A model generated the notes under the pieces. That model saw only the letters and a program-made list of their open reading frames with translations, did not search any database and was not told where the DNA came from. 27,225 nt of DNA from IMG/VR virus record IMGVR_UViG_2541047770_000002; one strand, written 5' to 3'. How positions within the stretch are numbered: the stretch's first letter is position 1; the number at the start of each line of letters is the position of its first letter. This DNA comes from a virus. Its lineage: Duplodnaviria > Heunggongvirae > Uroviricota > Caudoviricetes. Shown piece after piece: positions 3,359 to 27,225 of the stretch. Position numbers and translations under genes: made by a program.

Positions 3359-4785
3359 CAGTTGCCCCCTTTCAGGGTTAACAGGTATTCCGAGGTGATC
3401 TCAGTCTCAAACGTCAGTCGCTCCAGCGGCGGTGGTGGCGTATATTTGTAGCTCAGCAACAGGTGCCCGGCGGCCAGCTCCGTCTCCGGATTGCGGGCCG
3501 GATCAAACCAGCAACGGAAGCCCAGTACCGCACCATCACCAGTCATTTTGCGACCGTAGGCGTTGACCGACTCCGTCAGTGCATCAATCAGCGCCTGAGT
3601 AATCGGCATGTCGATGTACTGCTGGCTGAAATAACGAATGGACTCGTTGATCACATCACCGGTGCGGCGAACGTTCTCAAAGTTACGCATATGGGTGACC
3701 GTTGGCCATGCTGCCGTCCGGTTACCCCACAGACGAAGGCCGCTGCCGTAACTGCTGAATACCGTGGTGATCCCCTGTTCGTTAAGCAGGTTCACCTCAC
3801 TCTGCGGGTCATCAATCATCGCGGACAGCTGGCGCTCCACGCCGGTGATCCCCAGAATCTCCTGATTGGAGGATGACCACCAGTAGCCCTTGTCCAGATC
3901 GACTCTGGCACGCAGACCTGCTGCACGCTGGCTGAGCGGCTCCAGACGCTCTGTGTTTGTCACCGGGTCATATACCTTCACATGCGGATAGCACAGACGG
4001 ACGCGGTCGGAGCTGGTATTGAAGTTGATGGTGCCTTCCGGGCCACGACCTGCCAGAGCCTGTGCAAAGGTGGTACCGACAGGCGCATCAATGTAGGTTA
4101 CCGCGCCCAGCTTCTCTGCCATGGCGATAAGCTCAACTGCGACACTCTTCTGGGTGCAGAACACCGGCGCAATCAGAATTTTGGCGAAATAGCCGTACAG
4201 GTTGAAGCTGTCGTTAAGCAGCTTCATGCCGGTTCGGTTTCCGGCGCTGTTCACCCCGCCGATGATGTCCGCCGCAGTCACCTTCGACGGGTCCGCGTAC
4301 TCATAGCTCACCTTCACGCTGCCACCGGCCTCAATAGCCTTGCCCAGGTTCGTGAGCACACCCGCCTGCGCATCAACACGGTAGTCCGTGTTCGCCGTGT
4401 GGGAGGTGCTGCCTTCACTGTTTTTCACCACCACATTAGCGACAACCGGATGCGCCAGTCTGGCCTGCCCTGTCGATTTGTCAAAGGTAACCACCTCATC
4501 CTCGATCGCCGTTTTATGTTTCGCCGGGTCGAGGACGTTAATGACCAGAACGGTACCTGCACCATGGTCATAAATCGCATCCAGCGCCTGCGGAATGGTA
4601 AAGCCGGTGAACTGGCTGCCAAATGCCGCTGCGTCTTTCTCAGACAGGCACTGTACCAGCGTATTGACATCCCCCATCGGGGCGGTACCAATCAGGCCAA
4701 TAACGGCAGATTTCACCGTTTTAACCGGGCGGGCACCGTTTTCCACCTCAATGGTTTCGGGACCATGCAGATAGTTAGCTGCCAT
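3358..4785 (-). CDS. Phage tail sheath protein
   Basis: 475 aa, GGAGG 6 nt before ATG at 4785; size, position ahead of tube gene and sequence character match Mu L-type sheath proteins. Confidence 0.85.
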   Translation of the reverse strand: MAANYLHGPETIEVENGARPVKTVKSAVIGLIGTAPMGDVNTLVQCLSEKDAAAFGSQFTGFTIPQALDAIYDHGAGTVLVINVLDPAKHKTAIEDEVVTFDKSTGQARLAHPVVANVVVKNSEGSTSHTANTDYRVDAQAGVLTNLGKAIEAGGSVKVSYEYADPSKVTAADIIGGVNSAGNRTGMKLLNDSFNLYGYFAKILIAPVFCTQKSVAVELIAMAEKLGAVTYIDAPVGTTFAQALAGRGPEGTINFNTSSDRVRLCYPHVKVYDPVTNTERLEPLSQRAAGLRARVDLDKGYWWSSSNQEILGITGVERQLSAMIDDPQSEVNLLNEQGITTVFSSYGSGLRLWGNRTAAWPTVTHMRNFENVRRTGDVINESIRYFSQQYIDMPITQALIDALTESVNAYGRKMTGDGAVLGFRCWFDPARNPETELAAGHLLLSYKYTPPPPLERLTFETEITSEYLLTLKGGN

Positions 4786-5029
4786 GGGTGTCCTCCGTTT
4801 TCACTTCGCTGTCACTGCTGCTTCTGCGCTTTGGTGACTGCACAGCCGGTGTGCCGGCGGGTTTAGTCTCTTCAGGTACCGGCGTCAGATGTTTCAGCGC
4901 CACCAGTACCTTCACGTAGTCATGCTCCTCCGGCAGGGAAACCGTCTTCCCCGGCCAGAGCAGGATTTCGGTTCCGTCCGACAGCGTGACGCCGCTGGCC
5001 GGGCCGGAATAGCGGTATTCTTTCATCAC
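4775..5029 (-). CDS. Small hypothetical virion-module protein
   Basis: 84 aa ORF bridging gp37-like gene and sheath gene on the operon strand; overlaps sheath start by 11 nt. Confidence 0.45.
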   Translation of the reverse strand: MMKEYRYSGPASGVTLSDGTEILLWPGKTVSLPEEHDYVKVLVALKHLTPVPEETKPAGTPAVQSPKRRSSSDSEVKTEDTHGS

Positions 5030-5490: not shown

Positions 5491-5936
5491 CAGTATTTCT
5501 CCAGTAAACCGTCACGACCGCCGAAAGTGGCCGGGCGACTGCGTACACGAAACTCGCCAGGCTCAGGCACATCTTTCTGAGTGGACGGCAGCCCCAGCGT
5601 GAGCCTGTTATCACGTAACTCCCTGAGTTGCCGCAGCGCTTCTTTGTGGTCATCCTTTACCGTATCCGGGAGGTCACCTTCCGGGCGGCGGGCGTAGAGC
5701 CGGTAACGGACCAGCGTGATGGCAATGTCCCGCAGAACAGTCGGTATCTCTGCCAGTGGCAGGATATAGCGTCCGCGCAGATGGGCATCAATCAGCTCGT
5801 CGGCATAGCGGATACAGCTGTCCACCACACGGGTATTCACTGTTGCAGGCGAGTCGAAGTCCATCTCTTCACTGGTGAGCTCGATAAGCGTCCGCTCCGG
5901 CACCTGCGCAAGCAAATCCTCCAGGGTGCAGTACAT
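5490..5936 (-). CDS. Mu gp36-like head-tail joining protein
   Basis: Start taken at internal ATG 5936 (MYCTLEDLL...) directly after the stop of the upstream gene (TGAcATG); the longer track ORF to 6098 would overlap the upstream gene. Confidence 0.5.
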   Translation of the reverse strand: MYCTLEDLLAQVPERTLIELTSEEMDFDSPATVNTRVVDSCIRYADELIDAHLRGRYILPLAEIPTVLRDIAITLVRYRLYARRPEGDLPDTVKDDHKEALRQLRELRDNRLTLGLPSTQKDVPEPGEFRVRSRPATFGGRDGLLEKY

Positions 5937-5937
5937 G

Positions 5938-6276
5938 TCACACCCCGCGCAGGATACGAATGACGTCGCCTTCACCCCCGGCTTCATCAAGTGCAATACC
6001 ACAGGATTTACCGTCGCCGGACTGCGGCACGGCTCTGGCCTGAGCATCTGACTGAACAGCCACACCACGGCTGACAGCGGCCCCGGCCTCGACAGCAATA
6101 ATGCCCAGAACGCTCACCGGCGTGCTGTCGCCGGTAACAGCATCCACTTCGGCAACCCCGAGCGCTGCGGCACCGGCTTTACAGGGGGTATTATCTGCCC
6201 CGACAAAACGCTGCTGTGCCAGTGCTGCCCCTGCCGTTACGGTTGTGATCAGAATGACCTGCTGAGTGGTTCCCAT
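5938..6276 (-). CDS. Small Ala/Gly-rich head-associated protein
   Basis: 112 aa ORF immediately downstream of major capsid gene on same strand; low-complexity Ala/Gly/Val composition. Confidence 0.4.
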   Translation of the reverse strand: MGTTQQVILITTVTAGAALAQQRFVGADNTPCKAGAAALGVAEVDAVTGDSTPVSVLGIIAVEAGAAVSRGVAVQSDAQARAVPQSGDGKSCGIALDEAGGEGDVIRILRGV

Positions 6277-6285
6277 AACGCCTCC

Positions 6286-7239
6286 TTATTTACTGATACC
6301 GGTAATGAGATACCCGGCATCGCCACCAACCACGGCGACTTTGTAGATATCGGTATAACGGCAGTACTTCACCTTGCCACCGGCTCCGTCGTATTTGTCG
6401 GCAACAGGCATCCCCTTACGACGCAGGGTGTAGCCGAAGGACGGCTCGTTCTCGTCCGCGCTGTCCGCCCCCGGCTGCGGTTTGCCGACATAGTGCAGCA
6501 TCAGATTGTCTCCCCAGATATCCGCCGGCACGCTGTTCTTATCCATTGCCGCTTTCATGGACGGCAGGGAGACCGGGGCACCGATGACGATCTCTTCGAT
6601 CTGAAAGAGGTCCTGCAGGATTTCTGTGGTGATGCGCTTGCGTTCGTTGGCTCCGATGGCGGCCTGAATCGCCGGGTGGAACTTCAGCAGCGCCATCACG
6701 CCGGCCCCCATGGTCATCAGGTTAGGACGCAGCCCCGTGGCCGTACGGACCGCTTCCATACCGGCTTCAATCACCCCGATGGGGTCCCCCTTACCACCGG
6801 CCCAGCGATCACTGGCTGTCAGTTTTTTGACGTGCCCGGTACGGTAGACCTTTTCATCCTGAGCCAGACGGGCAGCGATAAGTTCACGGCGCAGGTTCAC
6901 GCCATTCGTGGCGCGACGGATGGCCTTGCTCTCTTCGTTAAACATGGACTCCGCCTGCTCGCGATAGTCCACCGGCGCAGCCAGATCGTGTTCACCCAGC
7001 ACCAGGTCCAGCGTGCCTGTTTTTTCACGGACCAGAACATTGCTGTCCGCCCCGACGGCACGCTCGGTGTCATATTCCACAAAGGCGGTTTTCCCGAAGG
7101 TCGGTACACGCACGCCTTCCTTGTCCGTCAGCACGACGGGGAAAATACGTTCGCCGATGAATGCGGCATTTTTATAGCCACGGGCGATACTGGTCAGTAC
7201 CGGATCAACGACACGTTTACCTTTTAAGTAATCAGACAT
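6286..7239 (-). CDS. Major capsid protein (Mu T-like)
   Basis: 317 aa; AAGGAGA before ATG at 7239; follows protease/scaffold gene as in Mu I-T order. Confidence 0.75.
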   Translation of the reverse strand: MSDYLKGKRVVDPVLTSIARGYKNAAFIGERIFPVVLTDKEGVRVPTFGKTAFVEYDTERAVGADSNVLVREKTGTLDLVLGEHDLAAPVDYREQAESMFNEESKAIRRATNGVNLRRELIAARLAQDEKVYRTGHVKKLTASDRWAGGKGDPIGVIEAGMEAVRTATGLRPNLMTMGAGVMALLKFHPAIQAAIGANERKRITTEILQDLFQIEEIVIGAPVSLPSMKAAMDKNSVPADIWGDNLMLHYVGKPQPGADSADENEPSFGYTLRRKGMPVADKYDGAGGKVKYCRYTDIYKVAVVGGDAGYLITGISK

Positions 7240-14764: not shown

Positions 14765-15488
14765 AACTGCTGCCTCCCCATGTGAGATATCGCGGTGCCA
14801 GTTCGCGCAGGATGCGCTGCGGATAATGGCGGTTCTCCCGCCAGCTGGCCGCATTGCGTCCGGCATTCACCGTGGCGACATGTCCGAACCAGCGGGTGCT
14901 GTCCAGACCTTTCTGTGATGCAAGCCGCCTGTCCCGTTGTACCCAGCCCAGACCACCGTTATAGCCCGACAGTGTCATGGCCATACGCTCGCAGTCACTG
15001 GCGGCGCTGACACGCTGCCACAGCCAGCGGTCATAGCTGACCAGCGCCCGGATAGCCCATGCCGGATTAAACGGCTCACGACTGCTCAGCATCGGTATCA
15101 ACTGGCTTATCCAGTCGGCAGTGGCAGGCATGAACTGCGCCAGTCCCTGAGCGCCAGCCGGCGAGATCGCATCAGGTCGCCAGCCGCTTTCCTGATGCAG
15201 TTGCGCGGCGAAATCGGCCACCGGCGCAGACAGTCCCCATTCAAGCCGGGCATTACGGATCACATCATCGCGATACTGCAGCGCAGCCTGCGGAGGTTGT
15301 GCTGCGCATGCCTGGCTGAAAAAGCCGCCACACCAGAGCAACATTGCGACAAAGAATACCCATGCCATATGAACCAGAAAGGTCCCGGCGCGGACTGACG
15401 GGCGTTCGGTTCTGATGAAGACCCGAAAGGCTTCGAAAGCCAGTTTCAGGGACATGCATACAATCCAGGTGATCTGCGGCCAGTTCAT
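14748..15488 (-). CDS. Endolysin, soluble lytic transglycosylase (SLT) domain, with N-terminal hydrophobic SAR-like or signal segment
   Basis: Contains the SLT catalytic-region signature ...AQLHQESGWRPDAISPAGAQGLAQFMPATA...; hydrophobic stretch WVFFVAMLLWCGGFFSQACAA near N-terminus; start coupled to holin-like stop (TAATCATG). Alternative start at ATG 15368. Confidence 0.8.
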   Translation of the reverse strand: MNWPQITWIVCMSLKLAFEAFRVFIRTERPSVRAGTFLVHMAWVFFVAMLLWCGGFFSQACAAQPPQAALQYRDDVIRNARLEWGLSAPVADFAAQLHQESGWRPDAISPAGAQGLAQFMPATADWISQLIPMLSSREPFNPAWAIRALVSYDRWLWQRVSAASDCERMAMTLSGYNGGLGWVQRDRRLASQKGLDSTRWFGHVATVNAGRNAASWRENRHYPQRILRELAPRYLTWGGSSCVASG

Positions 15489-15490
15489 GA

Positions 15491-15841
15491 TTAAAGCCCC
15501 ATCGCAACAGCCAGGCAGACCGCTGCAACAATCAGTGCACGGCGAATTAACGCAGCAGAAAACACCAGGTGAAGGCCGGTCTGTACCGGGAAACGCCCTT
15601 CAGCCATCAGCCTGTCGTCATGTTTCAGGTACTGACCAGGACGGGCTTTGGGGAAGAGCGAACGGTCAAGCCAGTAACCCAGCACTGCTGCCAGCGTGAT
15701 GAGTGCCAGCTTGTAGATCACAACAGGCAGCTGCTGTGGTGAGACCAGAGCGATGGTGCCCAGCAACAGCACTGAGGTCAGCAGCCAGCCGCTGAGGCGA
15801 GGTTTTTTAACAGGGGGAATGAATTTTTTCAGGTTTTTCAT
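15491..15841 (-). CDS. Holin-like membrane protein
   Basis: ATG at 15841 with AAGGAGA 5 nt upstream; about 116 aa with three predicted TM helices; first gene of the lysis/late operon immediately upstream of endolysin. Confidence 0.5.
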   Translation of the reverse strand: MKNLKKFIPPVKKPRLSGWLLTSVLLLGTIALVSPQQLPVVIYKLALITLAAVLGYWLDRSLFPKARPGQYLKHDDRLMAEGRFPVQTGLHLVFSAALIRRALIVAAVCLAVAMGL

Positions 15842-15971
15842 GTGTGTCTCCTTATCTGGTGGAGACAGCATCACAAATACAGGGCGCGAAGGATTTTAAA
15901 GCGCGTTAAGAGAGCCGGGGATACGGGATGTGCAGGATAAACGATGAATTATTCACAGAGGAGAATACGAT
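15842..15971. promoter_or_regulatory. Divergent intergenic region: probable late-operon promoter (minus) and promoter/operator of gene 15972..16700 (plus)
   Basis: 130-bp non-coding gap between divergent start codons; contains small palindrome TGAATTATTCA at 15945..15955 resembling the half-sites of the repressor-ner operator. Confidence 0.3.
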
Positions 15972-16700
15972 ATGACGCAGACACTGAATCCGGTCATCAC
16001 TGTCACCGTGTCCGGTCCTGTGGGCAGCGGTAAAAGTTACATATTGGCGCGGATAGAGGAAGTGGTGAAACAGGAATTCGGAAACAGCGTCATTGTCGAC
16101 GCCGCAGACGTGGACGGTGAGCGCCGTATGAGTGGGGATGATCTGAGCACATGGCAGAAACCACGGGCTGGCACAGTGATCAGGCTGGAGGAATACACGG
16201 GACAGGGCCTGTTGTCATACGGCGAGGAGCGTATCTGTCGGACGAATGAGCTGCTGGATGTTATATGCCCCACGGGCCGGCAACCCTGGATACTGCCCGA
16301 TGCACTGCATGCCACCATTGCGGCACTGATGACAGTTTACGATCAGGAGCTGCTCATGAAGGAGTTACGTAAACTCACTGGTCAGTCAACAGAATGTTGT
16401 TCGTCCCCGAAGTACGGCAAACAGGAACACATCCCGATTAACCAGCCTCCCCGGTTCTTCGACGAATACCTTCTGACACCGGAAAATAAAGCTGAGCATG
16501 AAGAGATCAAAGCGGCGTTGTTCCGGGAAATCAGGAAGATTGCTGAAATGCAGTTGGGGGGCGGGCTGGACAGAGTGATGGCGAGAGGAGAATGGGCATC
16601 GCTGTTTGAAAGAGTTTCCCCGGAATTACTTCCCCTCGCACTGGCTATCGGGATTATGCAGACAGCGGATAAACCTCACTTACGTTCATTAAACACGTAA
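15972..16700 (+). CDS. Hypothetical protein with Walker-A-like motif (GPVGSGKS)
   Basis: 242 aa; strong RBS AGAGGAG 8 nt before ATG; N-terminal VTVSGPVGSGKSYIL motif; no further assignable domain by eye. Confidence 0.5.
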   Translation: MTQTLNPVITVTVSGPVGSGKSYILARIEEVVKQEFGNSVIVDAADVDGERRMSGDDLSTWQKPRAGTVIRLEEYTGQGLLSYGEERICRTNELLDVICPTGRQPWILPDALHATIAALMTVYDQELLMKELRKLTGQSTECCSSPKYGKQEHIPINQPPRFFDEYLLTPENKAEHEEIKAALFREIRKIAEMQLGGGLDRVMARGEWASLFERVSPELLPLALAIGIMQTADKPHLRSLNT

Positions 16701-17080
16701 CGCATAATCCGGGATACGCATTCAGCGATGACTGCATTTTCACCGGTTTTTACTGCATCCAGAAGTGACTCTTTAAATGGTACGGGCCGGGGCTGCAGAA
16801 AGGTCGGCATGGCATTGAGCAGACAGAGCGTTTTTTCCGTGAGGACGACATCAGCCGCTCCCACAGCCAGCAACTGAGAGTAACGAATATAGCTGTTATC
16901 CCGAAGCCATATCAGCGTATCAATAAAACACCGGCACTTTTTCTGGTCGTGATCAACCTGGTCCGGGATATCGAAAAAACCAGAATAAATCAAAACCTGA
17001 GGTGCCGGATGCGTGTTCAGTAATCGGCAGAATATTTTGCCGGTGAGTACATAAAAATCATCATTTAAGGAGTGCATCAT
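16676..17080 (-). CDS. Hypothetical protein (134 aa)
   Basis: ORF on late-operon strand, convergent 25-nt overlap with 15972..16700 and start codon overlapping the divergent start of 17079..17294; weak RBS (GGGGA). Coding status uncertain. Confidence 0.35.
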   Translation of the reverse strand: MMHSLNDDFYVLTGKIFCRLLNTHPAPQVLIYSGFFDIPDQVDHDQKKCRCFIDTLIWLRDNSYIRYSQLLAVGAADVVLTEKTLCLLNAMPTFLQPRPVPFKESLLDAVKTGENAVIAECVSRIMRYVFNERK

Positions 17081-17294
17081 GAATCCCCGATTAACGTTAA
17101 CAGAACATCAGCGCCGTGCTGAAGCAGTGAACAATGTTCTGGAAGATATTATCCGGTTATACCGCGGAGAACTGAGTGTCTGTCGTGCCGCTTTTCATTT
17201 TCAGGGAATACAAAAGCAGTTTGATACTTCTGTTTTTGCAGAAGGTATTACTTATGCCCTGGACCGGATAAGGTCAGAAAATCGCCCCGGATAA
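17079..17294 (+). CDS. Hypothetical small protein (71 aa)
   Basis: Near-ideal RBS AAGGAG with 6-nt spacer before ATG 17079; upstream of dam on same strand. Confidence 0.4.
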   Translation: MNPRLTLTEHQRRAEAVNNVLEDIIRLYRGELSVCRAAFHFQGIQKQFDTSVFAEGITYALDRIRSENRPG

Positions 17295-17348
17295 TCCCTA
17301 AACCACATTAACAGAAATCCCGCCATCCCTGCCGCATCATGAAAGAAC

Positions 17349-17380
17349 GACCAGCCCGGCACCCGAAAGCCGGGCTGGTC
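17349..17380. other. Perfect GC-rich hairpin (12-bp stem GACCAGCCCGGC, 8-nt loop)
   Basis: GACCAGCCCGGC-ACCCGAAA-GCCGGGCUGGUC 55 nt after stop of 17079..17294; no strong U-tract on plus strand, so either a weak terminator or a structured RNA/REP-like element. Confidence 0.4.
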
Positions 17381-17420
17381 ATCGCCCCACAGGAATGCGC
17401 TGTGAGCCGACCAAGGTTCA

Positions 17421-17466
17421 GTCAGTCTCGCGAGACCTGACCAGACTGCCATATTTTTTAATAATT
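17421..17466 (+). promoter_or_regulatory. Candidate dam promoter with overlapping palindromic operator
   Basis: Imperfect 21-bp palindrome GTCAG-TCTCGCGAGA-CCTGAC (17421..17441; central 10 bp perfectly palindromic) overlapping a -35-like TGACCA, 17-bp spacer, -10-like ATAATT, about 20 nt before the dam ATG. Confidence 0.3.
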
Positions 17467-17484
17467 GTAAAAGGCTTACAGATT

Positions 17485-18252
17485 ATGAAAATGCAGACAT
17501 TACCCATCGTGCCGTGGATTGGTGGCAAACGCCGCCTTGCAAAACACATTCTGCCGCTGTTTCCGGCGCATGAATGTTATGTGGAGCCGTTTTGTGGGGC
17601 AGCAGCGCTCTATTTTCTTAAGACACCCGGCAAGATCGAAGTCATCAATGATATCAACGGTGAACTGGTGAATCTGTACCGGGTGGTAAAGCATCACCTG
17701 GAAGAATTTGTCCGCCAGTTCAAATGGGCGCTGGTCAGCCGTCAGATCTACAAATGGCTGCAGATCACCCCGGAAGAAACACTGACGGATATCCAGCGTG
17801 CGGCACGGTTTTACTACCTTCAGAAGCAGGCGTTTGGCGGCAAGGTGGCAGAGCACAGCTTCGGTACCTCCACCACATCCCCGCCACGCTTCAACCTGCT
17901 GCGTATTGAAGAAGAACTGTCAGCGGCACACCTGCGGCTTTCCAGAACAGTCATAGAACACATGGACTGGCAACAGTGCATTGAGCGTTATGATCGTCCG
18001 CACACGCTGTTCTACTGCGACCCACCGTACCTGGGTACGGAAGGCTATGGTGTGGATTTTCCTGAAGGGAACTACTCGCGGCTGGCAGAGCTGGCCCGGT
18101 GCATCAGAGGAAAGATGATTATATCGGTCAACGATATCCCGGAAATGCGGCAGGTTTTTAACGGTCTGAACATTCACTGTGTGAAGGTCAACTACAGTCT
18201 TGCAGGAAAGGGAACACTACGGCGCGAACTTATTGTAAGTAATTTAGAGTAG
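17485..18252 (+). CDS. dam: DNA adenine (N6) methyltransferase, Dam family
   Basis: Translation aligns by eye with E. coli Dam motifs: PWIGGKRRL (vs KWAGGK), EPFCGAAALYF (vs EPFVGAGSVF), DINGELVNLY (vs DINSDLISLY), FYCDPPY catalytic motif. Start ATG 17485 (MKMQTLPIV...); track start 17395 is upstream in frame. Confidence 0.85.
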   Translation: MKMQTLPIVPWIGGKRRLAKHILPLFPAHECYVEPFCGAAALYFLKTPGKIEVINDINGELVNLYRVVKHHLEEFVRQFKWALVSRQIYKWLQITPEETLTDIQRAARFYYLQKQAFGGKVAEHSFGTSTTSPPRFNLLRIEEELSAAHLRLSRTVIEHMDWQQCIERYDRPHTLFYCDPPYLGTEGYGVDFPEGNYSRLAELARCIRGKMIISVNDIPEMRQVFNGLNIHCVKVNYSLAGKGTLRRELIVSNLE

Positions 18253-18277
18253 GCTCAGAAGGAGGTAAGTAGTCTTG

Positions 18278-18309
18278 CATAACAATGCACCTGATGGTGC
18301 ATTGTTATG
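18278..18309. terminator. Bidirectional terminator-type hairpin between convergent dam and membrane-protein gene
   Basis: 14-bp perfect inverted repeat CATAACAATGCACC / GGTGCATTGTTATG with 4-nt loop TGAT; 26 nt after dam stop and overlapping the stop of the minus-strand gene. Confidence 0.5.
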
Positions 18310-18742
18310 ATATCACTTTGATTATATTGAATAATCGCCTACCTGTTTGTAATAAACACAACATAGACATAACAACAAGCCCAATGAGAATAGCGGCTAC
18401 AATCTCTTGATGCTTACTTTGCAGCATCAACCCAATCAAACATGTCAACACCAACACTAGCAAAACTAAGCAAGTGTAGAATGCATCGGTCATCAGACGC
18501 TTGTAATGTCCGGTTTTTTGCATGTTTTTAAGTAACGGTTTATCAAGCAATGATGCAAGTAGTGCAATTGCTGTAATAATAAAACCTAACAACGTTGCAA
18601 AGACACTGGACAATGTAGTCATGAAGTTTGGGATTGCGGCTACTGGCATATGGGGCAACTTGAACCAGTAGAGAAAACCAATCCCACATCCAATCAATAA
18701 ACTAAGCAATAGGGCCGAGTTCATCTTCTCCAATATATGCAT
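18305..18742 (-). CDS. Small four-helix integral membrane protein, RexB-like in size, topology and position (homology unverified)
   Basis: ATG 18742 with GGGAGAG 5 nt upstream (alternatives 18766, 18724); about 145 aa with four hydrophobic helices; last gene of repressor-strand operon; AT-rich. From memory of lambda RexB (144 aa, 4 TM) there may be a shared TLSS-plus-hydrophobic motif, but this was not verified. Confidence 0.6.
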   Translation of the reverse strand: MHILEKMNSALLLSLLIGCGIGFLYWFKLPHMPVAAIPNFMTTLSSVFATLLGFIITAIALLASLLDKPLLKNMQKTGHYKRLMTDAFYTCLVLLVLVLTCLIGLMLQSKHQEIVAAILIGLVVMSMLCLLQTGRRLFNIIKVIS

Positions 18743-19595
18743 TGATACTCTCCCGGTTTTCAGCATACGCAGTATCGATTAGACGGTACATGGTTTCGGC
18801 TGGAGGGAAACGAGCGTCAGTAACTACCGATTGATAGGACGAAATACGCTCGGCAATCAAATCCACAGGATGGACAACACCATCAGCATCGAACACATCA
18901 ATTACAGCCTTTTTCGCCCCAAACTCGACTAACTCTTGCATAGCAAATTTTATATTCTGCTTAAGCCTACCATCACTATCGCCACGGCGAGTATTAATCC
19001 CCATTACAATTTGCATTGTATCGGCACCTGCATCACCAAGCAGTTGTAGTGTCTTTTGACTGAAATCAGTATCAGGGTAAAACTCAGGATTACGGGGGCG
19101 AGGAATCGTCAACTGGATTTTTTTCATTTTGACATCTCCTCTCATAAGCCTAGCGATTGCATCTTTTTCCAGCAAAGGTGCGGGCTTAACCTTTGAACCA
19201 AAGATAGTTGAAAGAAATGCACTAAAACGGCTTATACCACAAGCCATATGATTATAGTGCCAACCTATAACATTGATTCGAGGATAGAATACAAAGAAAT
19301 TGCGCTCAATGATCCCTTCATCCTTGGCAAGTGGAATAGGGGTAGACTGTTTCCCTGGTGCACCTTTATCCGGAATGTTCGAGTTGCGAAATTTTCTCAA
19401 CTCTCCACTAAAAGAACCATCCGCGCGTTTTTTCAACCCCCAAATTTCTCTAGTAAAACCCTCATGGTTTGAAGAGGAAGGGCTCTGTTTATCAATTACA
19501 GATTGAAAAGCATCTCCGAGATTTGCCAGCTGATCTGTGGCCTTAAACGATAGCTGATGAAACTCAATACGATAATTTCTCACATCACCACTCAT
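18702..19595 (-). CDS. Hypothetical 297-aa soluble protein in the rexA position (no recognisable family)
   Basis: ATG 19595 with AAGGA 8 nt upstream; no TM segments; AT-rich codon usage unlike phage backbone; 3' end overlaps start of the membrane-protein gene (operon). No similarity to lambda RexA apparent by eye. Confidence 0.6.
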   Translation of the reverse strand: MSGDVRNYRIEFHQLSFKATDQLANLGDAFQSVIDKQSPSSSNHEGFTREIWGLKKRADGSFSGELRKFRNSNIPDKGAPGKQSTPIPLAKDEGIIERNFFVFYPRINVIGWHYNHMACGISRFSAFLSTIFGSKVKPAPLLEKDAIARLMRGDVKMKKIQLTIPRPRNPEFYPDTDFSQKTLQLLGDAGADTMQIVMGINTRRGDSDGRLKQNIKFAMQELVEFGAKKAVIDVFDADGVVHPVDLIAERISSYQSVVTDARFPPAETMYRLIDTAYAENRESINAYIGEDELGPIA

Positions 19596-19717
19596 ACGAT
19601 TAATCCTTAACGCGGAAAGTTCAGATGGTTAGTGCAAACAGCACATCCTACTGTTTAAATCAGCGCATATAACGAAGAGGTTTGATAACCTTGTCAATTG
19701 TTCTCATTGGGAATAGA
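19596..19717 (-). promoter_or_regulatory. Intergenic region between repressor and 297-aa gene; candidate internal promoter
   Basis: Minus-strand consensus -35 TTGACA (plus 19692..19697) with imperfect -10 candidates 17-19 nt downstream; could allow expression independent of the repressor promoter. Confidence 0.25.
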
Positions 19718-20134
19718 TTAACCCACATTTTTTAACCGCTCAATCGTTGCGGATAATTCCTTCAGTTGTTTTTCCATCTCGATCACTCGCTGTTTTTCCG
19801 CAGCGCCTCGCAGAAGATCGTTACGAACCTCGGGGTCTAGCTGCTTTAAAAGCTCAAGCATAGTAAGGTCAGCTTGGCTAAACTGCACTTGCGTCGGAGT
19901 TACGTCTACTTCTTTTGATAAACCTTGTTTTCTACCTGTTAGCAACCAATCTAAAGAAACCCCCTTTTCTTCTGCGATGTTTATGCAAATTGCATAAGGC
20001 ACAGAATCACGCTTCCTCCAACTTGCAAGTGTCTGCCTATTGACGTTAAGCGCTCTTGCCAACTCACTATCATTCTCTGCTTGGAATAGTGACATTAACC
20101 GGGAAAGCACAGCGTTAACATCTTTGTTATTCAT
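19718..20134 (-). CDS. Prophage repressor, CI-type helix-turn-helix (no peptidase domain)
   Basis: 138 aa from ATG 20134 (track start 20149 is GTG); HTH segment LARALNVNRQTLASWRKRDSVPYAICINIAEEKGVSLDWLLTG typical of phage CI-type repressor N-terminal domains; divergent from the ner-A-B early operon. Confidence 0.7.
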   Translation of the reverse strand: MNNKDVNAVLSRLMSLFQAENDSELARALNVNRQTLASWRKRDSVPYAICINIAEEKGVSLDWLLTGRKQGLSKEVDVTPTQVQFSQADLTMLELLKQLDPEVRNDLLRGAAEKQRVIEMEKQLKELSATIERLKNVG

Positions 20135-20149
20135 TTTGCGTAATTCCAC

Positions 20150-20222
20150 TTGATTTATTTATTTTGAATAAGTACATTTATTCATATTGAGTACATGATA
20201 ACCCAACTGGAACTATCCGCAT
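20150..20222. promoter_or_regulatory. Repressor / early-operon operator-promoter region
   Basis: 20-bp palindrome TGAATAA-GTACAT-TTATTCA at 20165..20184 (perfect 7-bp arms); second GTACAT copy at 20191..20196; lies between divergent repressor and ner-like starts. Confidence 0.5.
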
Positions 20223-20447
20223 ATGAATAAACAACAAGTTCGGGCACGACTAGTTGAACGAGGCAGTAGCTTGCGCCAGTTCGCGCTTAACGCAGGCTAT
20301 GAGCCACGAACAGTCACACAGGCAGTCAGTCGCTGGGCTGGTAAAAGTGAACTACCACGTGGTCGTTTGACTTATCGGATTTTGCGAGATCTATCGGTTG
20401 CAATAGGTAAAGAAGTTACCCCCGGTATCCTTAAGGAGGTGTCATGA
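20223..20447 (+). CDS. ner: Ner-like DNA-binding protein (early-operon regulator)
   Basis: 74 aa; segment LRQFALNAGYEPRTVTQAVSRWAGKSELP resembles Mu Ner (LSALSRQFGYAPTTLANALERHWPKGEQ, from memory); first gene of operon ending in transposase and B. Confidence 0.65.
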   Translation: MNKQQVRARLVERGSSLRQFALNAGYEPRTVTQAVSRWAGKSELPRGRLTYRILRDLSVAIGKEVTPGILKEVS

Positions 20448-20752
20448 ATAAACCAAATACATCAAGCGCAGGTACCCGTATTTTGCGTGTTCTTAAGGCG
20501 TTACGTGGCCACGCTCTGAACGGTATCTCCAACGGTGAACTGGCGGCAGCACTGCACGAGTCACCAGCAAACATTAATCGGGCACTCAACACCCTCATTG
20601 AAGAAGGGCTGGCCCTGAAACTGGAGAATGGACGTTTTGCACCGGGCATCCAGTTACTGCAGATCGCCATGGCTCACAGTAACGAGATGGCACGAGCGCA
20701 GGATCGTATTAACGAAATCAACCAACGTGTCATTTCAGGTAGTCGTTTATAA
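20444..20752 (+). CDS. Small winged-helix DNA-binding protein (IclR-like HTH)
   Basis: 102 aa; ATG overlaps ner stop (ATGA), AAGGAGG upstream; pattern RILRVLKAL...ISNGELAAALHESPANINRALNTLIEEGLA resembles IclR-type N-terminal wHTH. Confidence 0.45.
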   Translation: MNKPNTSSAGTRILRVLKALRGHALNGISNGELAAALHESPANINRALNTLIEEGLALKLENGRFAPGIQLLQIAMAHSNEMARAQDRINEINQRVISGSRL

Positions 20753-20762
20753 GGAGTAATCA

Positions 20763-21674
20763 ATGGGACGTACCAAATCACCAATGTCCACTGATCTGAA
20801 TGCTGAGGTGCCGCTGTCTGATGATCTCAACATCAGTCTTAATACCATGGCACAACACCGCGTGGAGATCATGCAGCAGTTCGGCGATGGTCTGCCTTAT
20901 GAACGTGATCGCATTGTTCACGAAGCACGCTTTTATATGGCACAAAGTGCTGAGGCCATGCTAGAGGCAGGTAAACGACTGATAATACTGAAAGAAAATG
21001 AACCATATGGTGATTTCATAAATATTGTCGAGTCTGAATTATCAATGTCAAAGCGTACTGCACAGGTAATGATGCAGGCATCAATAAAATATTTATCACC
21101 ACAACTTGAGTCAAAAGCGCAGACGTTTGCGCTTTTAGGAAAAGCCAAATTATTCGAGTTAATGACGGAAGACGATGAAAACCTTGCCGAACTGGCTGAT
21201 GGTGGCACTGTTGCCGGCCTGACGCTTGACGACGTTGATCGCATGTCAGTACGCGAACTTCGCCAGGCCCTGCGCGAAGCGCGCGAAACCAACGCAGCAC
21301 AACAGCGCGTACTCGCCGATAAAAATGAAAAAATTGATTCTCTCTCTACCAGACTGGAAAAGAAATCCCGTATTCAGCCGCCTGAGCCTGATGAGGAGGT
21401 TAAGAAGCTGCGGGCGGAAGTGACAGCATTAGCGGTTGAGGCGGAATCTGCTATCGCCGTCCGACTGTCCAGCGCTTTTGAGACACTGTGCGCATATTGT
21501 GCTGAAAACATGATTGATACTCCCAGAGACTTCATGGCAGGCCTGGTCTGTCAACTGGAAAGCACAGCGCGTAGCCTGCGCTCCACATTTGACCTGCCGG
21601 ACGAGCCAACAGGCAATGCAGCGCCTTCATGGCTGACTGAGCCGACGCCACAGATTAACGGGCTGGAGGCATAA
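20763..21674 (+). CDS. Hypothetical coiled-coil early protein
   Basis: 303 aa, AAGGAG RBS; central coiled-coil region; a gene of similar character sits before the transposase in several Mu-like prophages (recollection, unverified). Confidence 0.5.
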   Translation: MGRTKSPMSTDLNAEVPLSDDLNISLNTMAQHRVEIMQQFGDGLPYERDRIVHEARFYMAQSAEAMLEAGKRLIILKENEPYGDFINIVESELSMSKRTAQVMMQASIKYLSPQLESKAQTFALLGKAKLFELMTEDDENLAELADGGTVAGLTLDDVDRMSVRELRQALREARETNAAQQRVLADKNEKIDSLSTRLEKKSRIQPPEPDEEVKKLRAEVTALAVEAESAIAVRLSSAFETLCAYCAENMIDTPRDFMAGLVCQLESTARSLRSTFDLPDEPTGNAAPSWLTEPTPQINGLEA

Positions 21675-23457: not shown

Positions 23458-24624
23458 ATGCTGGTACTGAAGCAGCAACTGAAAGAGGCCCGTATTCCAC
23501 AGGCGGTGGTGGCGAGAGCTGTCGATGTTTCTGAGGCCACGCTGGCCCAGATTGTGAATCATAACGCGTGGCCCCGCACCAGCCCCGGAGAAGTGCGCCG
23601 GCGTCTTGCGTCCTGGCTGGAAAGTCAGGGGATTGATACAACGAAGAGTTTTGATGCTGTACAGGGCGCGGCCACGCCCCGTACAGCGGGTACCACAGAT
23701 AAAACGAGCCTCAGTGAGGAAGAGAATATGTTACTCAAAAAACAGGTGTTATTTCCAGCAACCAAAAAAGCGTTTGGTCTTTTCCGTGACCCGTTCGCCG
23801 ACGAAGCCATGCAGGGTTCTGATGATGTGTTCACCACCCCGGACATTCGCTACGTGCGTGAGGCGCTGTACCAGACAGCCCGTCATGGTGGGTTTATGGC
23901 CGTCATCGGTGAGTCCGGTGCGGGTAAATCCACGCTGCGCCGCGACCTGACTGAACGTATCAACCGCGAGAATGCGCCGGTAATTGTTATCGAGCCATAC
24001 ATCATCGCTATGGAAGACAACGATGTGAAAGGGAAAACCCTGAAGGCAGCAGCTATTGCCGAAGCCATTATCAGTACCATCGCACCACTGGAAAGCATCA
24101 GACGCAGTCAGGACGCCCGTTTTCGCCAGTTGCATCGCGTCCTGAAAGACAGCAGCCAGGCGGGGTTCAGCCACGTTCTGGTGATTGAGGAGGCCCACAG
24201 TCTGCCCATTCCGACACTGAAACACCTCAAACGCTTTTTTGAGCTGGAGTCCGGTTTCAAAAAACTGCTGTCCATCGTGCTGATTGGCCAGCCGGAACTG
24301 GCGACAAAACTGTCTGAACGCAATATGGAAGTCCGTGAAGTCGTTCAGCGCTGTGAGGTGGTCGAACTTCTGCCTCTGGACAATAACCTTGAAGAATTTC
24401 TGACGTTCAAACTGCAACGGGCCGGTAAACAGCTGACGGACATTATGGACGCCGGTGCAGTGGATGCCATACGTGCCCGCCTGAGCAATCCGGGAAGTCA
24501 CCGTAAAAATATGGTCAGCCTGCTGTATCCGCTGGCCGTCAGTAACCTGGTAATAGCCGCCATGAATCTGGCCGCTGAAATCGGGGTTCCACAGGTCAAC
24601 GCTGACGTTGTCAAAGGGGTTTAA
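23458..24624 (+). CDS. Transposition target-DNA activator ATPase (Mu B-like, AAA+)
   Basis: ATG 23458 with GGAGGG RBS directly after transposase stop; N-terminal HTH-like segment then Walker A GESGAGKST and Walker B-like HVLVIEEAH. Confidence 0.8.
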   Translation: MLVLKQQLKEARIPQAVVARAVDVSEATLAQIVNHNAWPRTSPGEVRRRLASWLESQGIDTTKSFDAVQGAATPRTAGTTDKTSLSEEENMLLKKQVLFPATKKAFGLFRDPFADEAMQGSDDVFTTPDIRYVREALYQTARHGGFMAVIGESGAGKSTLRRDLTERINRENAPVIVIEPYIIAMEDNDVKGKTLKAAAIAEAIISTIAPLESIRRSQDARFRQLHRVLKDSSQAGFSHVLVIEEAHSLPIPTLKHLKRFFELESGFKKLLSIVLIGQPELATKLSERNMEVREVVQRCEVVELLPLDNNLEEFLTFKLQRAGKQLTDIMDAGAVDAIRARLSNPGSHRKNMVSLLYPLAVSNLVIAAMNLAAEIGVPQVNADVVKGV

Positions 24625-24643: not shown

Positions 24644-24810
24644 TGCGTATTTTCATGAAAGGAGATCACTCAATAACTTCCATCGAGATCGGGTAATAAC
24701 ATTTGAACAGATCGCTGAATAACATCGATGGAGATCACTTTTGACTCATTTTGTTATTCAGTGATCTCCATCAATGTTATTGGAACTTCACAGGTGTGTT
24801 GATCTGTATC
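24644..24810. repeat. Left terminal inverted repeat region of IS with multiple internal repeats
   Basis: GGAGATC-containing motifs at 24661, 24685, 24730 and inverted at 24763; six GATC sites within about 160 bp. Confidence 0.6.
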
Positions 24811-24836
24811 TTTTGCCATTCCGGTAAAGGATACCT

Positions 24837-26378
24837 ATGCCAACAGTTCCAATTTCTATGAGAAAACTTAAAGAAATTCTTAGGCTTAAATACGGTGTTG
24901 GACTCAGCCATCGACAAATTGGTCGTAGTCTTGCAATCTCCCCTTCCGTTGTATCCAGATATGCTAATCGGGCGGCTCAACTTGGCATAAAGCAGTGGCC
25001 CTTACCTACAGGATGGGATGATACAAAACTAAAACATGCGTTCCTTCAGACCCAGGTTAAGATGAAGAAGCACTCTCTGCCTGACTGGGCTACAGTACAC
25101 CGGGAACTGCGTAATAAATGCGTGACGCTGCAGCTACTCTGGGAAGAATACTGTGAGCGTAATCCAGGCGGTTTTTACAGCTATAACCATTACTGCCGGA
25201 TGTACCGTGAATGGCTCAAAACCACTTCACCATCAATGCGTCAGGTACATAAAGCTGGCGAAAAACTTTTCGTTGATTACTGTGGACCTACCGTTGGCGT
25301 TACCGACCCTGAGACCGGAGAAATAAAAACTGCTCAGGTCATCGTAGCTGTTCTCGGGGCATCAAGTTACACATGGGCAGAGGCCACCTGGTCTCAGCAG
25401 CTTGAAGACTGGGTGATGAGTCATGTTCGCTGCTTCCAGTGGTTGGGTGGCGTTCCTGAACTTGTTGTTCCGGACAATCTGAAAAGCGCCACATCCAGGG
25501 CATGTAAGTATGATCCTGACGTTAACCCTACCTACCAGCAGATGCTTGAGCATTATAATGTCGCAGTTTTGCCTGCGCGGCCACGTAAACCGAAAGATAA
25601 AGCCAAAGCTGAAGTTGGCGTTCAGGTTGTTGAACGCTGGATCATGGCCCGAATCAGGCATGAGATCTTCTACAGCCTTGCATCGCTTAATCAGCGCATT
25701 CGGGAGTTGCTGGAAAGACTGAATAACAAAATAATGCAGAAGTTGGGTTATTCACGTGCAGAACTCTTCATCCAGCTTGATAAACCCGCACTGAAGCCTC
25801 TTCCTGAAGCCAGTTACAGTTACACCCTGGTGAAGAAAGTCAGAGTTCATGCCGATTACCACGTGGAAATCGACAAACATTACTACTCGGTTCCATGTTC
25901 GCTGTTAGGCCAGCAACTGGAAGCATGGATCTCCGGAGAACTGGTAAGACTCTTCAATCAGGGGCAGGAGGTTGCTGTGCACCCGCGCAAGCGTACTTAT
26001 GGCTACAGTACCCGCAACGAGCACATGCCTGAAGCTCATCGACAGCATGCCACCTGGACGCCAGAGCGTCTTCTGGAATGGGCGGGGCACATAGGCAGTG
26101 AAACTCATAGTTATGTGCTTCATATACTGAACTCTCGTCCACATCCGGAACAAAGCTATCGCTTCTGCCTTGGACTCCTGAACCTTCATAAAAAATACAG
26201 TAAAGCCAGACTTAATGCAGCATGTGCAAGAGCTCTGAAAACAAAGGTATGGCGTCTGTCAGGTATTAAATCGATCCTGGAAAAAGGTCTGGATAAACAA
26301 CCTGTTCAGGATCCAAAACCAGATCTGTTATCCACGATGGAACACGAAAACGTACGCGGCAGTGAGTATTACCACTGA
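24837..26378 (+). CDS. istA: IS21-family transposase IstA
   Basis: 513 aa; N-terminal HTH (GLSHRQIGRSLAISPSVVSRY), DDE-type core; followed 11 nt later by istB. Confidence 0.85.
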   Translation: MPTVPISMRKLKEILRLKYGVGLSHRQIGRSLAISPSVVSRYANRAAQLGIKQWPLPTGWDDTKLKHAFLQTQVKMKKHSLPDWATVHRELRNKCVTLQLLWEEYCERNPGGFYSYNHYCRMYREWLKTTSPSMRQVHKAGEKLFVDYCGPTVGVTDPETGEIKTAQVIVAVLGASSYTWAEATWSQQLEDWVMSHVRCFQWLGGVPELVVPDNLKSATSRACKYDPDVNPTYQQMLEHYNVAVLPARPRKPKDKAKAEVGVQVVERWIMARIRHEIFYSLASLNQRIRELLERLNNKIMQKLGYSRAELFIQLDKPALKPLPEASYSYTLVKKVRVHADYHVEIDKHYYSVPCSLLGQQLEAWISGELVRLFNQGQEVAVHPRKRTYGYSTRNEHMPEAHRQHATWTPERLLEWAGHIGSETHSYVLHILNSRPHPEQSYRFCLGLLNLHKKYSKARLNAACARALKTKVWRLSGIKSILEKGLDKQPVQDPKPDLLSTMEHENVRGSEYYH

Positions 26379-26389
26379 TACGGGATCCA

Positions 26390-27139
26390 ATGATGAATCA
26401 TCTTTACGAACAACTGACCGCACTTAAACTCACCGGCTTCCGTGATGCGCTTAAAAAGCAACTTGCTCAGCCGGGCACATACCAGGAGCTGGGCTTCGAA
26501 GAACGCCTGTCATTACTGACAGCAGAAGAACTAACCTGCCGTGAAAACAGGAAGGCAGAGCGTCTGATCAAACATGCACGGTTCAGACTTAATGCTGAGT
26601 TATCAAAGCTGGATTATCGTAACAATAGAGGGCTGGACAGGGCCCTCATCCGTTCACTCAGTCAGGGAAACTGGTTAACCCTGAAACAAAATATTTTACT
26701 GACCGGGGCCACCGGCAGCGGTAAAACGTTCCTGGCATGTGCACTTGGTCATAATGCCTGCCGACAGGGATACAAGGTCTACTATTATCGCCTTAAAGCG
26801 CTGATGGAACAGTGCTATCAGGGGCATGCTGATGGAAGATACAGCAAACTTTTGACCAGGCTGAATAATAGCGATCTGCTGCTTCTGGATGACTGGGGGC
26901 TGGAACCTCTCTCATCAGAACAGCGTAGCGACCTGCTGGAAATAGTGGATCTGATGTACCAACGAGGCTCAATCATCGTAGTGAGCCAGTTGCCGGTGGA
27001 AAACTGGTACAAAATGATCGGAGACTCCACACATGCGGATGCCATCCTAGATCGACTGGTTCATGGCAGTATCAAGATCGAACTTAAAGGAGAATCAATG
27101 CGGAAAATACAATCTCCGTTGACCGAAGGAGATCAGTGA
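26390..27139 (+). CDS. istB: IS21-family helper ATPase IstB
   Basis: 249 aa; Walker A LLTGATGSGKTFLACALG, Walker B LLLLDDWG; canonical IstB size. Confidence 0.85.
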   Translation: MMNHLYEQLTALKLTGFRDALKKQLAQPGTYQELGFEERLSLLTAEELTCRENRKAERLIKHARFRLNAELSKLDYRNNRGLDRALIRSLSQGNWLTLKQNILLTGATGSGKTFLACALGHNACRQGYKVYYYRLKALMEQCYQGHADGRYSKLLTRLNNSDLLLLDDWGLEPLSSEQRSDLLEIVDLMYQRGSIIVVSQLPVENWYKMIGDSTHADAILDRLVHGSIKIELKGESMRKIQSPLTEGDQ

Positions 27140-27164
27140 AGGTAATTTAAAAACGGTTCTGTGA

Positions 27165-27224
27165 AAGTGACACGAACCGATCTCCATCGATGTTACTCAC
27201 CGATCTCCTTCACGGTAATACGCA
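27165..27224. repeat. Right terminal inverted repeat region of IS
   Basis: Reverse complement TTGCGTATTACCGTGAAGGAGATCGGTGAGTAACATCGATGGAGATCGG aligns with left end (24643..24700). Confidence 0.6.
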
Positions 27225-27225
27225 A

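Follow-up and report, generated by a model that had tools for sequence, protein, structure and literature searches.

How can two genes that begin on top of each other, on opposite strands and with no DNA between them, both be expressed, and are both of them genes at all? The question is raised by a stretch of 27,225 nucleotides (nt) from a virus of the class Caudoviricetes (IMG/VR record IMGVR_UViG_2541047770_000002; hereafter the window, meaning the whole stretch that was analyzed), in which a 134-amino-acid (aa) open reading frame (ORF) on the minus strand and a 71-aa ORF on the plus strand share part of their ATG codons, next to a 242-aa ORF with a Walker A motif. A preliminary description, made from the letters of this DNA, had placed the three ORFs at the coordinates that we find; it had proposed that one of the two overlapping ORFs might be spurious, or that their expression relies on promoters inside the partner gene. 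Our computational analysis shows that all three ORFs are real genes and that they form a compact accessory cassette of a BcepMu-like prophage; the start-codon overlap is more than a local oddity and marks a two-gene module that is mobile and widespread. The features on which the argument rests are the following:

15972-16700, plus strand: gene of a 242-aa modular protein, phrog_3787 (PHROG match, E 2.5e-169)
16676-17080, minus strand: gene of a 134-aa winged-helix protein, phrog_2266 (E 2.6e-44), the lone antisense gene within the plus-strand unit 242-aa > 71-aa > dam
17079-17294, plus strand: gene of a 71-aa protein, phrog_4490 (E 7.2e-53), in the same orientation as dam
17075-17081, both strands: CATCATG junction, with 2 nt common to the start codons of the two strands
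17066-17071, plus strand: AAGGAG Shine-Dalgarno of the 71-aa gene, 7 nt upstream of its ATG and within codons 4-5 of the 134-aa ORF
17084-17088, minus strand: GGGGA Shine-Dalgarno-like element of the 134-aa gene, within codons 2-4 of the 71-aa ORF
16676-16700, both strands: convergent 3' overlap of 25 nt between the 242-aa and 134-aa genes, from the ORF coordinates

The junction reads gtgCATCATGaat. The plus-strand ATG occupies positions 17079-17081 and the minus-strand ATG positions 17078-17080, an overlap of 2 nt (17079-17080) that becomes a 1-nt gap if the second in-frame minus-strand ATG (17075-17077) is used. The divergent overlapping ATGs had thus been rightly noticed, the interval first given for them (17077..17081) being only approximate; the 25-nt convergent overlap, the AAGGAG within the 134-aa ORF and the GGGGA within the small ORF had gone unmentioned. 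Since the starts overlap and each ribosome-binding site (RBS) lies within the other ORF, a leadered mRNA of either gene is antisense to the 5' coding region of its partner. The pair thus has one property of a face-to-face switch: its genes diverge in such a way that their transcripts cannot but overlap at the 5' ends.

Recurrence of the Pair in Temperate Phages

We found CATG head-to-head starts with a partner of 63-85 codons in seven lineages, that is, in every related lineage with the pair that was examined. The loci, with the identity of their winged-helix protein to that of the window unless stated otherwise, are:

Serratia BcepMu-like prophages (L007-L010): winged-helix protein 53% identical, small ORF of 73 aa, junction CATCATG
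L014, a BcepMu-like prophage: 36% identical, small ORF of 69 aa, junction CATG
P2-like phages ST147-VIM1phi7.1, Midge and FSL SP-004 and prophage L040: ~31% identical, small ORF of 63-64 aa, junction CATG
P2-like IMG/VR contigs, 42 of 42: 76-99% identical to the Midge protein, small ORF of 63-64 codons, junction CATG
L012, L034 and L033: ~30% identical, small ORFs of 74, 66 and 85 codons, respectively (uncalled by gene finders), junction CATG

The 42 P2-type IMG/VR loci encode 31 distinct small proteins, every one of them intact. The pair is conserved in at least two unrelated temperate-phage families, and its core is a two-gene module made of a winged-helix gene of about 135-155 aa and a small gene of about 63-85 aa. 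This module is mobile; it occupies the slot between holin and dam in BcepMu-like phages, the gpA-gpQ defense hotspot of P2-like phages and, once, the interval between holin and endolysin of a P2-like late operon. A single orientation rule holds in all seven lineages: the winged-helix gene alone opposes an array of co-directional genes, whose next member is the small ORF. The order is a P-loop or C-domain gene, the antisense winged-helix gene, the small gene and dam in BcepMu-like phages; gpA, a DinI-like gene, the antisense winged-helix gene and the small gene in the P2 hotspot; and holin, the antisense winged-helix gene, the small gene and endolysin in the P2-like late operon of L033. In L012 and L034, every neighbor is on the strand of the small gene.

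The translation signals of the window have counterparts elsewhere. The Shine-Dalgarno of the small gene is GGAGG in Serratia, AGGAG in L014, GGAG in L033 and L034 and GAGG in the P2 type, and this signal of the partner is encoded opposite the conserved N-terminal peptide of the winged-helix family (…S-N-I/L-E/D-x-F-N…). In the P2-type set, synonymous divergence is 0.23 in the first 8 codons of the small gene versus 0.53-0.73 elsewhere in the gene, which fits a second function of that segment. The equivalent convergent 3' overlap at the other end of the winged-helix gene is 37 nt long in Serratia and 4 nt in L014.

The locus of the P2-type pair is the gpA-gpQ defense hotspot of Rousset et al. 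(PMC9122126), a paper that also cites the moron concept and whose supplementary tables list the alleles of E. coli FRIK944 (WP_000042038 and WP_000551925) merely as "hypothetical"; the FRIK944 system tested there is not the pair, a candidate match that we ruled out, being a cytidine deaminase of the P4 hotspot. Variable defense-like cargo lies downstream of the winged-helix gene, in the same direction, in 13 of the 42 P2-type loci; it comprises metallo-beta-lactamase-fold, Fic, DUF262-like (by eye, from the N-terminal sequence) and Sel1-like (by eye) proteins, and a protein of unknown type. At a further 11 of the 42 loci, a reverse-transcriptase gene adjoins the winged-helix gene on the other strand.

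This reverse transcriptase has 316 aa, with an RVT_1 match at E 1e-5 that is below the Pfam gathering cut-off, and comes with an overlapping helix-turn-helix (HTH) gene (L029, 3556-4792; L083, 4762-5998). It is present in E. coli O157:H7 FRIK944 and in Klebsiella phage ST147-VIM1phi7.1, where it is annotated as a "polymerase". Together, the two genes are probably a defense unit of the retron type or of the defense-associated reverse transcriptase (DRT) type.

Neither form of the pair is rare: the three-ORF region of the window was found in 599 of 5426 complete E. coli genomes (~11%), and the P2-type pair is carried by about 2% of them.

Selection and Natural Variants

The preliminary description had pictured constraint in only one of the two overlapping ORFs as an outcome that would tell against its reading of the cluster; the P2-type loci show purifying selection on both. 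The ratio of non-synonymous to synonymous differences (pN/pS) is 0.055-0.2 by individual pair for the winged-helix gene (mean 0.13) and 0.28-0.33 for the small gene in its annotated frame. When all six frames were compared, a low pN/pS without internal stop was seen in the annotated frames only, the others having a pN/pS >1, internal stops, or both. That the 134-aa or the 71-aa ORF is a spurious call, as had been suspected, is therefore scarcely credible to us, even though the depositors of phage PhiKM left the 134-aa ORF unannotated, gene callers missed the small ORF in L012, L033, L034 and L040, and polymorphism within E. coli is weakly frame-specific. Such a call would have to explain, besides the low pN/pS, the confident fold and deep family of the winged-helix protein described below and, for the small gene, frame-specific purifying selection, 31 intact alleles, a consensus Shine-Dalgarno and cross-genus homologs.

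Some records call for correction. The 134-aa gene without annotation in PhiKM (L002) lies at 31079-31456, and the loci with an uncalled small ORF are L012 (287-887), L034 (511-1127) and L040 (2323-2953); in L033 (2754-3468), a 77-aa ORF was called on the wrong strand, and the start of the winged-helix gene was set at a GTG two codons early. A dN/dS >1 for the 71-aa gene against L037 was discarded as an artefact: the "homologs" at 72-77% (P0039, P0040 and P0045) stem from frameshifts in a contig of low quality.

Natural variants bear out the view that we are dealing with a moron-like accessory cluster, as had been supposed. The holin-dam slot is variable, KP12 having one unrelated gene there and EC32 different genes without dam, and the 134-aa gene is deleted in some variants and frameshifted in L006. 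Two independent deletions of the winged-helix gene keep exactly 51 nt (L005, L027 and L028) or 36 nt (L039) before the ATG of the small gene.

The Winged-Helix Protein and Its Small Partner

The 134-aa ORF had been described as lacking a clear HTH while occupying the position of the late activator C of phage Mu. Neither statement can be kept. A search of 1.8 billion representatives yielded, besides the Serratia homolog (53% identical), about 30 full-length relatives at 25-38% identity, and AlphaFold2 with the alignment of these relatives gave a model with a pLDDT of 87.1 and a pTM of 0.81, in which structure comparison recognizes the winged-helix topology H1-S1-(H2)-H3-S2-S3 with its wing. As for Mu C, a Mor/C-family activator gene is found at the distal end of the early operon (L001, 30457-30846; "Mup21" of PhiKM, 20740-21129), so the 134-aa ORF is not its analogue; membership of the Mor family was ruled out, the protein matching no Pfam family at E up to 0.1.

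The model has many structure matches of the MarR, PadR and IclR types at 7-19% sequence identity, and protein-binding winged helices (kleisin, cullin, RPA32) match it with equal score. The conserved residues F9, P25, W58-L59, L80-T81, L88 and P92 look structural in role, and the helix-2 region is a variable loop. Searches of other kinds returned little: Pfam and NCBIfam have no match for the protein, and no regulator family was hit by the 31 family members scanned; the UniRef label "DUF2513" on the Serratia homolog was not reproduced by Pfam; a BFVD fold search with the model gave nothing at E < 0.001; scans of genome and viral contigs with the winged-helix alignment or with P0051 found nothing; and no relevant publication turned up in a literature search on the protein accessions, phrog_2266 and DUF2513.

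The 71-aa protein is probably all-helical, judging by eye from its residue pattern. Its Serratia homolog (73 aa) is 31% identical (E 3e-11), and pairwise BLAST in a set of eight proteins links it through a chain of similarity to the small ORFs of L014, L034 and L033. Taken over all loci, at least two sequence families of small partners can be told apart, phrog_4490 and phrog_2454; profile searches of PDB with both families gave chance-level matches only. The small proteins evolve two to ten times faster than the winged-helix protein and are not consistently basic, which together suggests protein binding rather than DNA binding. We also considered the 71-aa protein as a dam-specific controller resembling C proteins, and dropped this idea since neither in L014 nor in the P2-like phages is the pair accompanied by dam.

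The 242-aa Walker A Protein

The third member of the cassette is a modular protein, the upstream member of the plus-strand unit. Its GPVGSGKS motif (residues 15-22, nt 16014-16037) agrees with the Walker A pattern GxxxxGK[ST] and is invariant in 13 homologs. The motif belongs to an N-terminal module of about 50 aa with the succession strand, Walker A, helix and strand ("SVIVDAADVD"); against PDB profiles, only residues 4-48 match, to the Walker A region of ABC transporters (IrtB, E 0.007). No complete nucleotide-binding domain (NBD) was found when Walker B, Q-loop, signature motif and H-loop were looked for, the Pfam, NCBIfam and PDB-profile matches ending at about residue 50 and staying below family cut-offs; the earlier remark that the protein has a Walker A without a full NTPase fold is thus upheld by sequence methods. 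An AlphaFold2 model from a shallow alignment was unusable (mean pLDDT 43; <30 over residues 1-80; ~70 for residues 180-230).

One has to keep in mind that the parts of this protein have separate histories in the loci compared. Residues 51-124 are dispensable, being missing in natural 182-aa variants, and residues ~125-242 are swapped for other sequence in variants of 141 and 158 aa that adjoin a different cassette; RefSeq names these short variants "ABC transporter ATPase", which is wrong for this P-loop protein and should be corrected. It is the helical C-terminal domain (aa ~170-235, nt ~16480-16676) that accompanies the pair in BcepMu-like phages: Serratia encodes this domain only, as an 89-aa protein with 46% identity to aa 177-228, and the full-length homolog of L014 (258 aa) matches both ends of the 242-aa protein. 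The P-loop N-module is also found with other partners in L004 and L038. The latter, the single distant locus from a P-loop scan of genome and viral contigs, has the module alone in a 130-aa protein ("IEIIVSGPVGSGKSHVLALIERALRAEYGRDVCIVSPDLDAERQ", with an unrelated C-terminus; 6004-6396 of Enterobacterales bacterium JBKYML010000002.1) within a high-GC unrelated prophage. The minimal Walker A module thus looks like an N-terminal unit that small phage proteins can reuse and is, for the pair, an optional add-on; its likeness to an ABC ATPase domain is confined to the first ~45 residues of the latter, and from its sequence an autonomous NTPase activity is unlikely.

A Possible Toggle and Its Alternatives

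What could hold two genes together at zero spacing? The flanks of the cassette contribute further features:

15875-15971, both strands: divergent control region from holin to the 242-aa gene, by sequence reading; partly conserved with Serratia L007
15960-15963, plus strand: GGAG Shine-Dalgarno of the 242-aa gene, by sequence reading
17349-17380, minus strand: perfect 12-bp hairpin with a T-rich tail on that strand
17485-18252, plus strand: dam, a D12-class adenine methylase (PF02086, E 8e-30)

We propose tentatively, at somewhat less than an even chance, that the pair is an antisense-embedded moron with mutually exclusive expression, in which the winged-helix gene is off when the small gene is on. 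The winged-helix gene would be a moron with its own promoter, expressed in the lysogen. As the starts overlap and its RBS lies within the partner ORF, that promoter must sit inside or just beyond the small ORF; the first reading of the locus, with no intergenic promoter space and promoters inside or beyond the partner gene, holds here and extends to the other lineages. The hairpin at 17349-17380 looks, from its sequence, like a terminator for leftward transcription and might form the right-hand boundary of the promoter space of the 134-aa gene; a hairpin with a T-run, together with CTGTGAGYCRACC, is kept after the small gene in Serratia (L007, ~5700-5780) and in L014 (~4720-4790), even without dam. 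In some P2-like phages, the winged-helix gene would head a transcript continuing into the variable cargo (Fic, metallo-beta-lactamase-fold, DUF262-like).

Transcription of the surrounding unit (here 242-aa > 71-aa > dam; in P2-like phages an early/SOS or late operon) would cross the winged-helix gene in antisense and yield the mRNA of the small gene; the small gene might depend on read-through out of the upstream array or else on a promoter within the winged-helix ORF. No plus-strand terminator-like site was predicted between the stop of the 242-aa gene and the start of the 71-aa gene (16701-17078). Under either supply route transcription would be convergent, and mutually exclusive expression is therefore expected; complementary 5' ends covering both RBSs, together with this convergence, would exclude joint expression. 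The outcome would be a hard-wired toggle, a silent surrounding unit giving the winged-helix protein (with its cargo, where present) and an active unit giving the small protein. The latter is most likely a protein-binding antagonist, or lytic-phase counterpart, of the winged-helix function.

Several observations weigh against this proposal. The search for promoters (consensus scan, position weight matrix on six loci, 24-sequence consensus) gave only weak, non-conserved candidates, and in neither ORF a sigma-70 promoter that was strong or conserved in position. After deletion of the winged-helix gene in L005 and L039, the small gene stays intact as the next gene of the array, so coupling is not obligatory; conversely, the head-to-head partner is absent at some distant winged-helix homologs (L011, L015, L032 and L035/36). 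No homology between phrog_4490 and phrog_2454 was detected by hhalign (probability <2%), also when L033 and L034 were added, and with two non-homologous families of small partners a common function has to be assumed. Between the Klebsiella phage and Midge, nucleotide identity is 64% in the small gene and 89% in the winged-helix gene, a step at the junction that may reflect recombination rather than co-evolution. DNA binding by the winged-helix protein is not evident, as it is close to neutral overall and hydrophobic residues are what is conserved in its "recognition helix". Lastly, polymorphism within E. coli is sparse, the region being too uniform, and codon-position signals there are weak.

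Alternatively, the pair could be a classical divergent regulator-target pair, with the winged-helix protein as a repressor or activator of the MarR/PadR kind that acts at an operator in the junction, regulates itself and controls the small gene together with dam or cargo; the geometry would then merely reflect an operator and promoters packed into coding sequence. The fold with its many MarR/PadR/IclR-type matches and the place of the gene, first ahead of variable cargo in some P2-like phages, agree with this, as does an 18-bp near-palindrome, CGGCAGAATATTTTGCCG, at 17025-17042 within the winged-helix ORF, 37-54 nt before the ATG of the small gene. Its core, CAGAATATTTTGCC, contains a rare ATA codon and is identical in Serratia despite 53% protein identity; the L005 deletion ends at its left edge and largely retains it. 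The palindrome could be an operator, a -10 element, or merely a conserved GKIF coding motif: it coincides with that motif and is not conserved in L014 and in the P2 type. Given also that no Pfam or NCBIfam regulator family covers the window protein or the 31 family members, that the canonical position of HTH helix 2 is a variable loop, and that the conserved helix-3 residues are hydrophobic, we hold a regulator-target pair to be unlikely. The same degree of doubt attaches, for other reasons, to the idea that nothing couples the genes and that two or three unrelated morons meet here, a reverse moron having been inserted in an operon and trimmed to zero spacing by compaction. The genes do occur apart (small gene without winged-helix gene, L005 and L039; winged-helix gene without small gene, L011, L015, L032 and L035; N-module, L004 and L038), and the two unrelated partner families and the discontinuous divergence at the junction point the same way; but drift is expected to vary the spacing, whereas the exact 2-nt CATG overlap has been kept in seven lineages and three genomic locations between proteins that have diverged to ~30% or beyond recognition, and both independent deletions of the winged-helix gene end just before the translation signals of the small gene.

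An explanation of another kind is a multi-gene system for anti-phage defense or exclusion, or one resembling toxin–antitoxin (TA) systems, with a P-loop sensor or ATPase, a winged-helix effector or adaptor and a small antidote. It would suit the fast evolution of the small partner and the variable slots near defense-type genes (in the P2 gpA-gpQ interval, reverse transcriptase, Fic, DUF262-like and metallo-beta-lactamase-fold). We nevertheless regard it as quite improbable: PADLOC-DB v2 (library dated 2023) has no match for the 134-aa and 71-aa proteins and, for the 242-aa protein, only matches to the P-loop region at E 0.002-0.06; searches revealed no catalytic, toxin or antitoxin domain; neither Serratia nor any P2-type locus has the P-loop module; the genes are divergent, without the co-transcription of type II TA systems; and the winged-helix gene decays or is deleted while the small gene stays, the opposite of antitoxin addiction.

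Returning to mutually exclusive expression, a wider form of it can be stated, in which the pair is an unrecognized, self-contained toggle carried between hotspots, with the winged-helix protein and defense cargo ON in the lysogen and the small protein ON lytically, as off-switch or antidote; taken as a whole, we rate this as speculative and rather improbable. If true, the pair would be a portable lysogeny/lysis sensor for accessory cargo. Prophage hotspots are a source of new defense and counter-defense genes, and little is known about how such cargo changes over from lysogeny to the lytic cycle. If the zero-spacing antisense design enforces exclusion, it would be an unusually compact regulatory device and a handle to predict which hotspot genes are expressed in lysogens, in a pair that is common yet so far listed only as "hypothetical".

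Prophage Setting and Neighboring Features

The window is a BcepMu-like transposable prophage of E. coli. Positions 1-24644 are 100% identical to E. coli EC5654 (NZ_CP095086), and positions 15400-18300 are 98.8% identical to Escherichia phage PhiKM of the genus Bcepmuvirus, the sole match when the 242-aa and 71-aa proteins were compared by tblastn with phage records. The structural and lysis operon is on the minus strand, with an SLT endolysin and the holin (15491-15874) at its end, before the three ORFs; the holin is the first gene of this late/lysis operon. No strong sigma-70 match was found in the control region at 15875-15971. After the three ORFs come dam, two minus-strand hypothetical genes and the repressor (19718-20134, minus strand), then the early operon on the plus strand with a ner-like HTH gene, DUF3102, transposase A and B/ExeA. 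The dam gene is the downstream neighbor of the small gene, outside the conserved pair, and is not beside the pair in L014 and in the P2-like phages.

All three PHROG matches of the cassette proteins are full-length, and the three families are annotated as "unknown function"; RefSeq labels the three genes as hypothetical proteins. Scans of Pfam, NCBIfam and PADLOC with all three proteins gave nothing above threshold, and an Rfam scan of 15400-20500 gave no match. Routine functions, which the preliminary description had thought homology might reveal, were assigned to none of the three by the profile and structure searches.

The motif CTGTGAGCCGACC (17400-17412) comes after the hairpin at 17349-17380. 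Facing this hairpin is a weak promoter-like site that points leftward (17491 to 17464), so that a short RNA antisense to the dam leader is conceivable. Beyond dam, a perfect 13-bp hairpin (CATAACAATGCAC / GTGCATTGTTATG, 18279-18312) lies between dam and the convergent membrane-protein gene, whose stop it overlaps; it is probably the dam terminator.

The interval between dam and the repressor (18305-19595, minus strand) is a low-GC (38-45%) two-gene cassette that encodes a 297-aa protein (phrog_7651, no Pfam match) and an overlapping one of 145/153 aa, which to the eye resembles a multi-pass membrane protein. As L004, L005 and KP12 have other genes at this place, it is a second variable slot, and its cassette is a candidate for a lysogen-expressed exclusion or defense module.

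At its right end (24645-27225), the window has an IS21-family element inserted directly after the prophage B/ExeA gene (23458-24624). It encodes an IstA-like ORF of 513 aa (24837-26378) with rve and Mu-transpos_C_2 domains and an IstB ORF of 249 aa (26390-27139; PF01695, E 2e-67). The otherwise identical prophage of NZ_CP095086 lacks this element. The insertion separates the distal early genes, including Mor, from the early promoter, and the prophage may therefore be defective.

Comparison with Known Systems

The closest parallels are the lysogeny switches of P2 (C/Cox, promoters Pc/Pe) and 186 (CI/Apl, promoters pL/pR), in which face-to-face promoters give transcripts that overlap at their 5' ends and interference favors one state; there, promoters and operators lie in a true intergenic region, and both products are DNA-binding regulators of lysogeny. 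The pair resembles them in being divergent, with promoters that have to fire at each other, in the overlap of its transcripts at their 5' ends and in belonging to temperate phages of the same hosts. It differs in having no intergenic DNA, in being accessory and mobile, and in encoding proteins unrelated to C, Cox, CI or Apl; the promoter scans gave it no convincing promoter.

Classical morons, as described by Hendrix and colleagues, have their own promoter and terminator in flanking non-coding DNA. The winged-helix gene is like a moron in that it is a lone reverse gene, dispensable and variably present between conserved phage genes, often at defense hotspots; unlike classical morons, it is paired with a start-overlapping gene on the opposite strand that runs in the direction of the host operon.

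At the protein level, the winged-helix protein stands apart from the N-terminal domains of MarR, PadR and IclR and from Zalpha/Zbeta, with 7-19% identity, no family profile and no visible conserved basic recognition surface. Residues 4-48 of the 242-aa protein align with the beginning of ABC-type ATPases (transporter NBDs and the OLD/GajA/AriA class of defense proteins), that is, with a strand, Walker A, a helix and a "G-x-V-x-I-D-G-x-D" start; unlike these ATPases, the module has only ~50 aa, is joined to unrelated C-termini, is absent in Serratia and is unstructured in the AlphaFold2 model.

The acr-aca loci, finally, including those of Mu-like phages, combine a small effector with an HTH regulator, acr and aca being co-transcribed in one operon. 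The pair is similar in that a small, fast-evolving, non-enzymatic protein is encoded beside a protein of (winged) HTH fold in an accessory region of temperate phages; it differs in that its genes are divergent and mutually antisense, and its proteins show no sequence relation to known Aca or Acr families, though no anti-defense library was searched.

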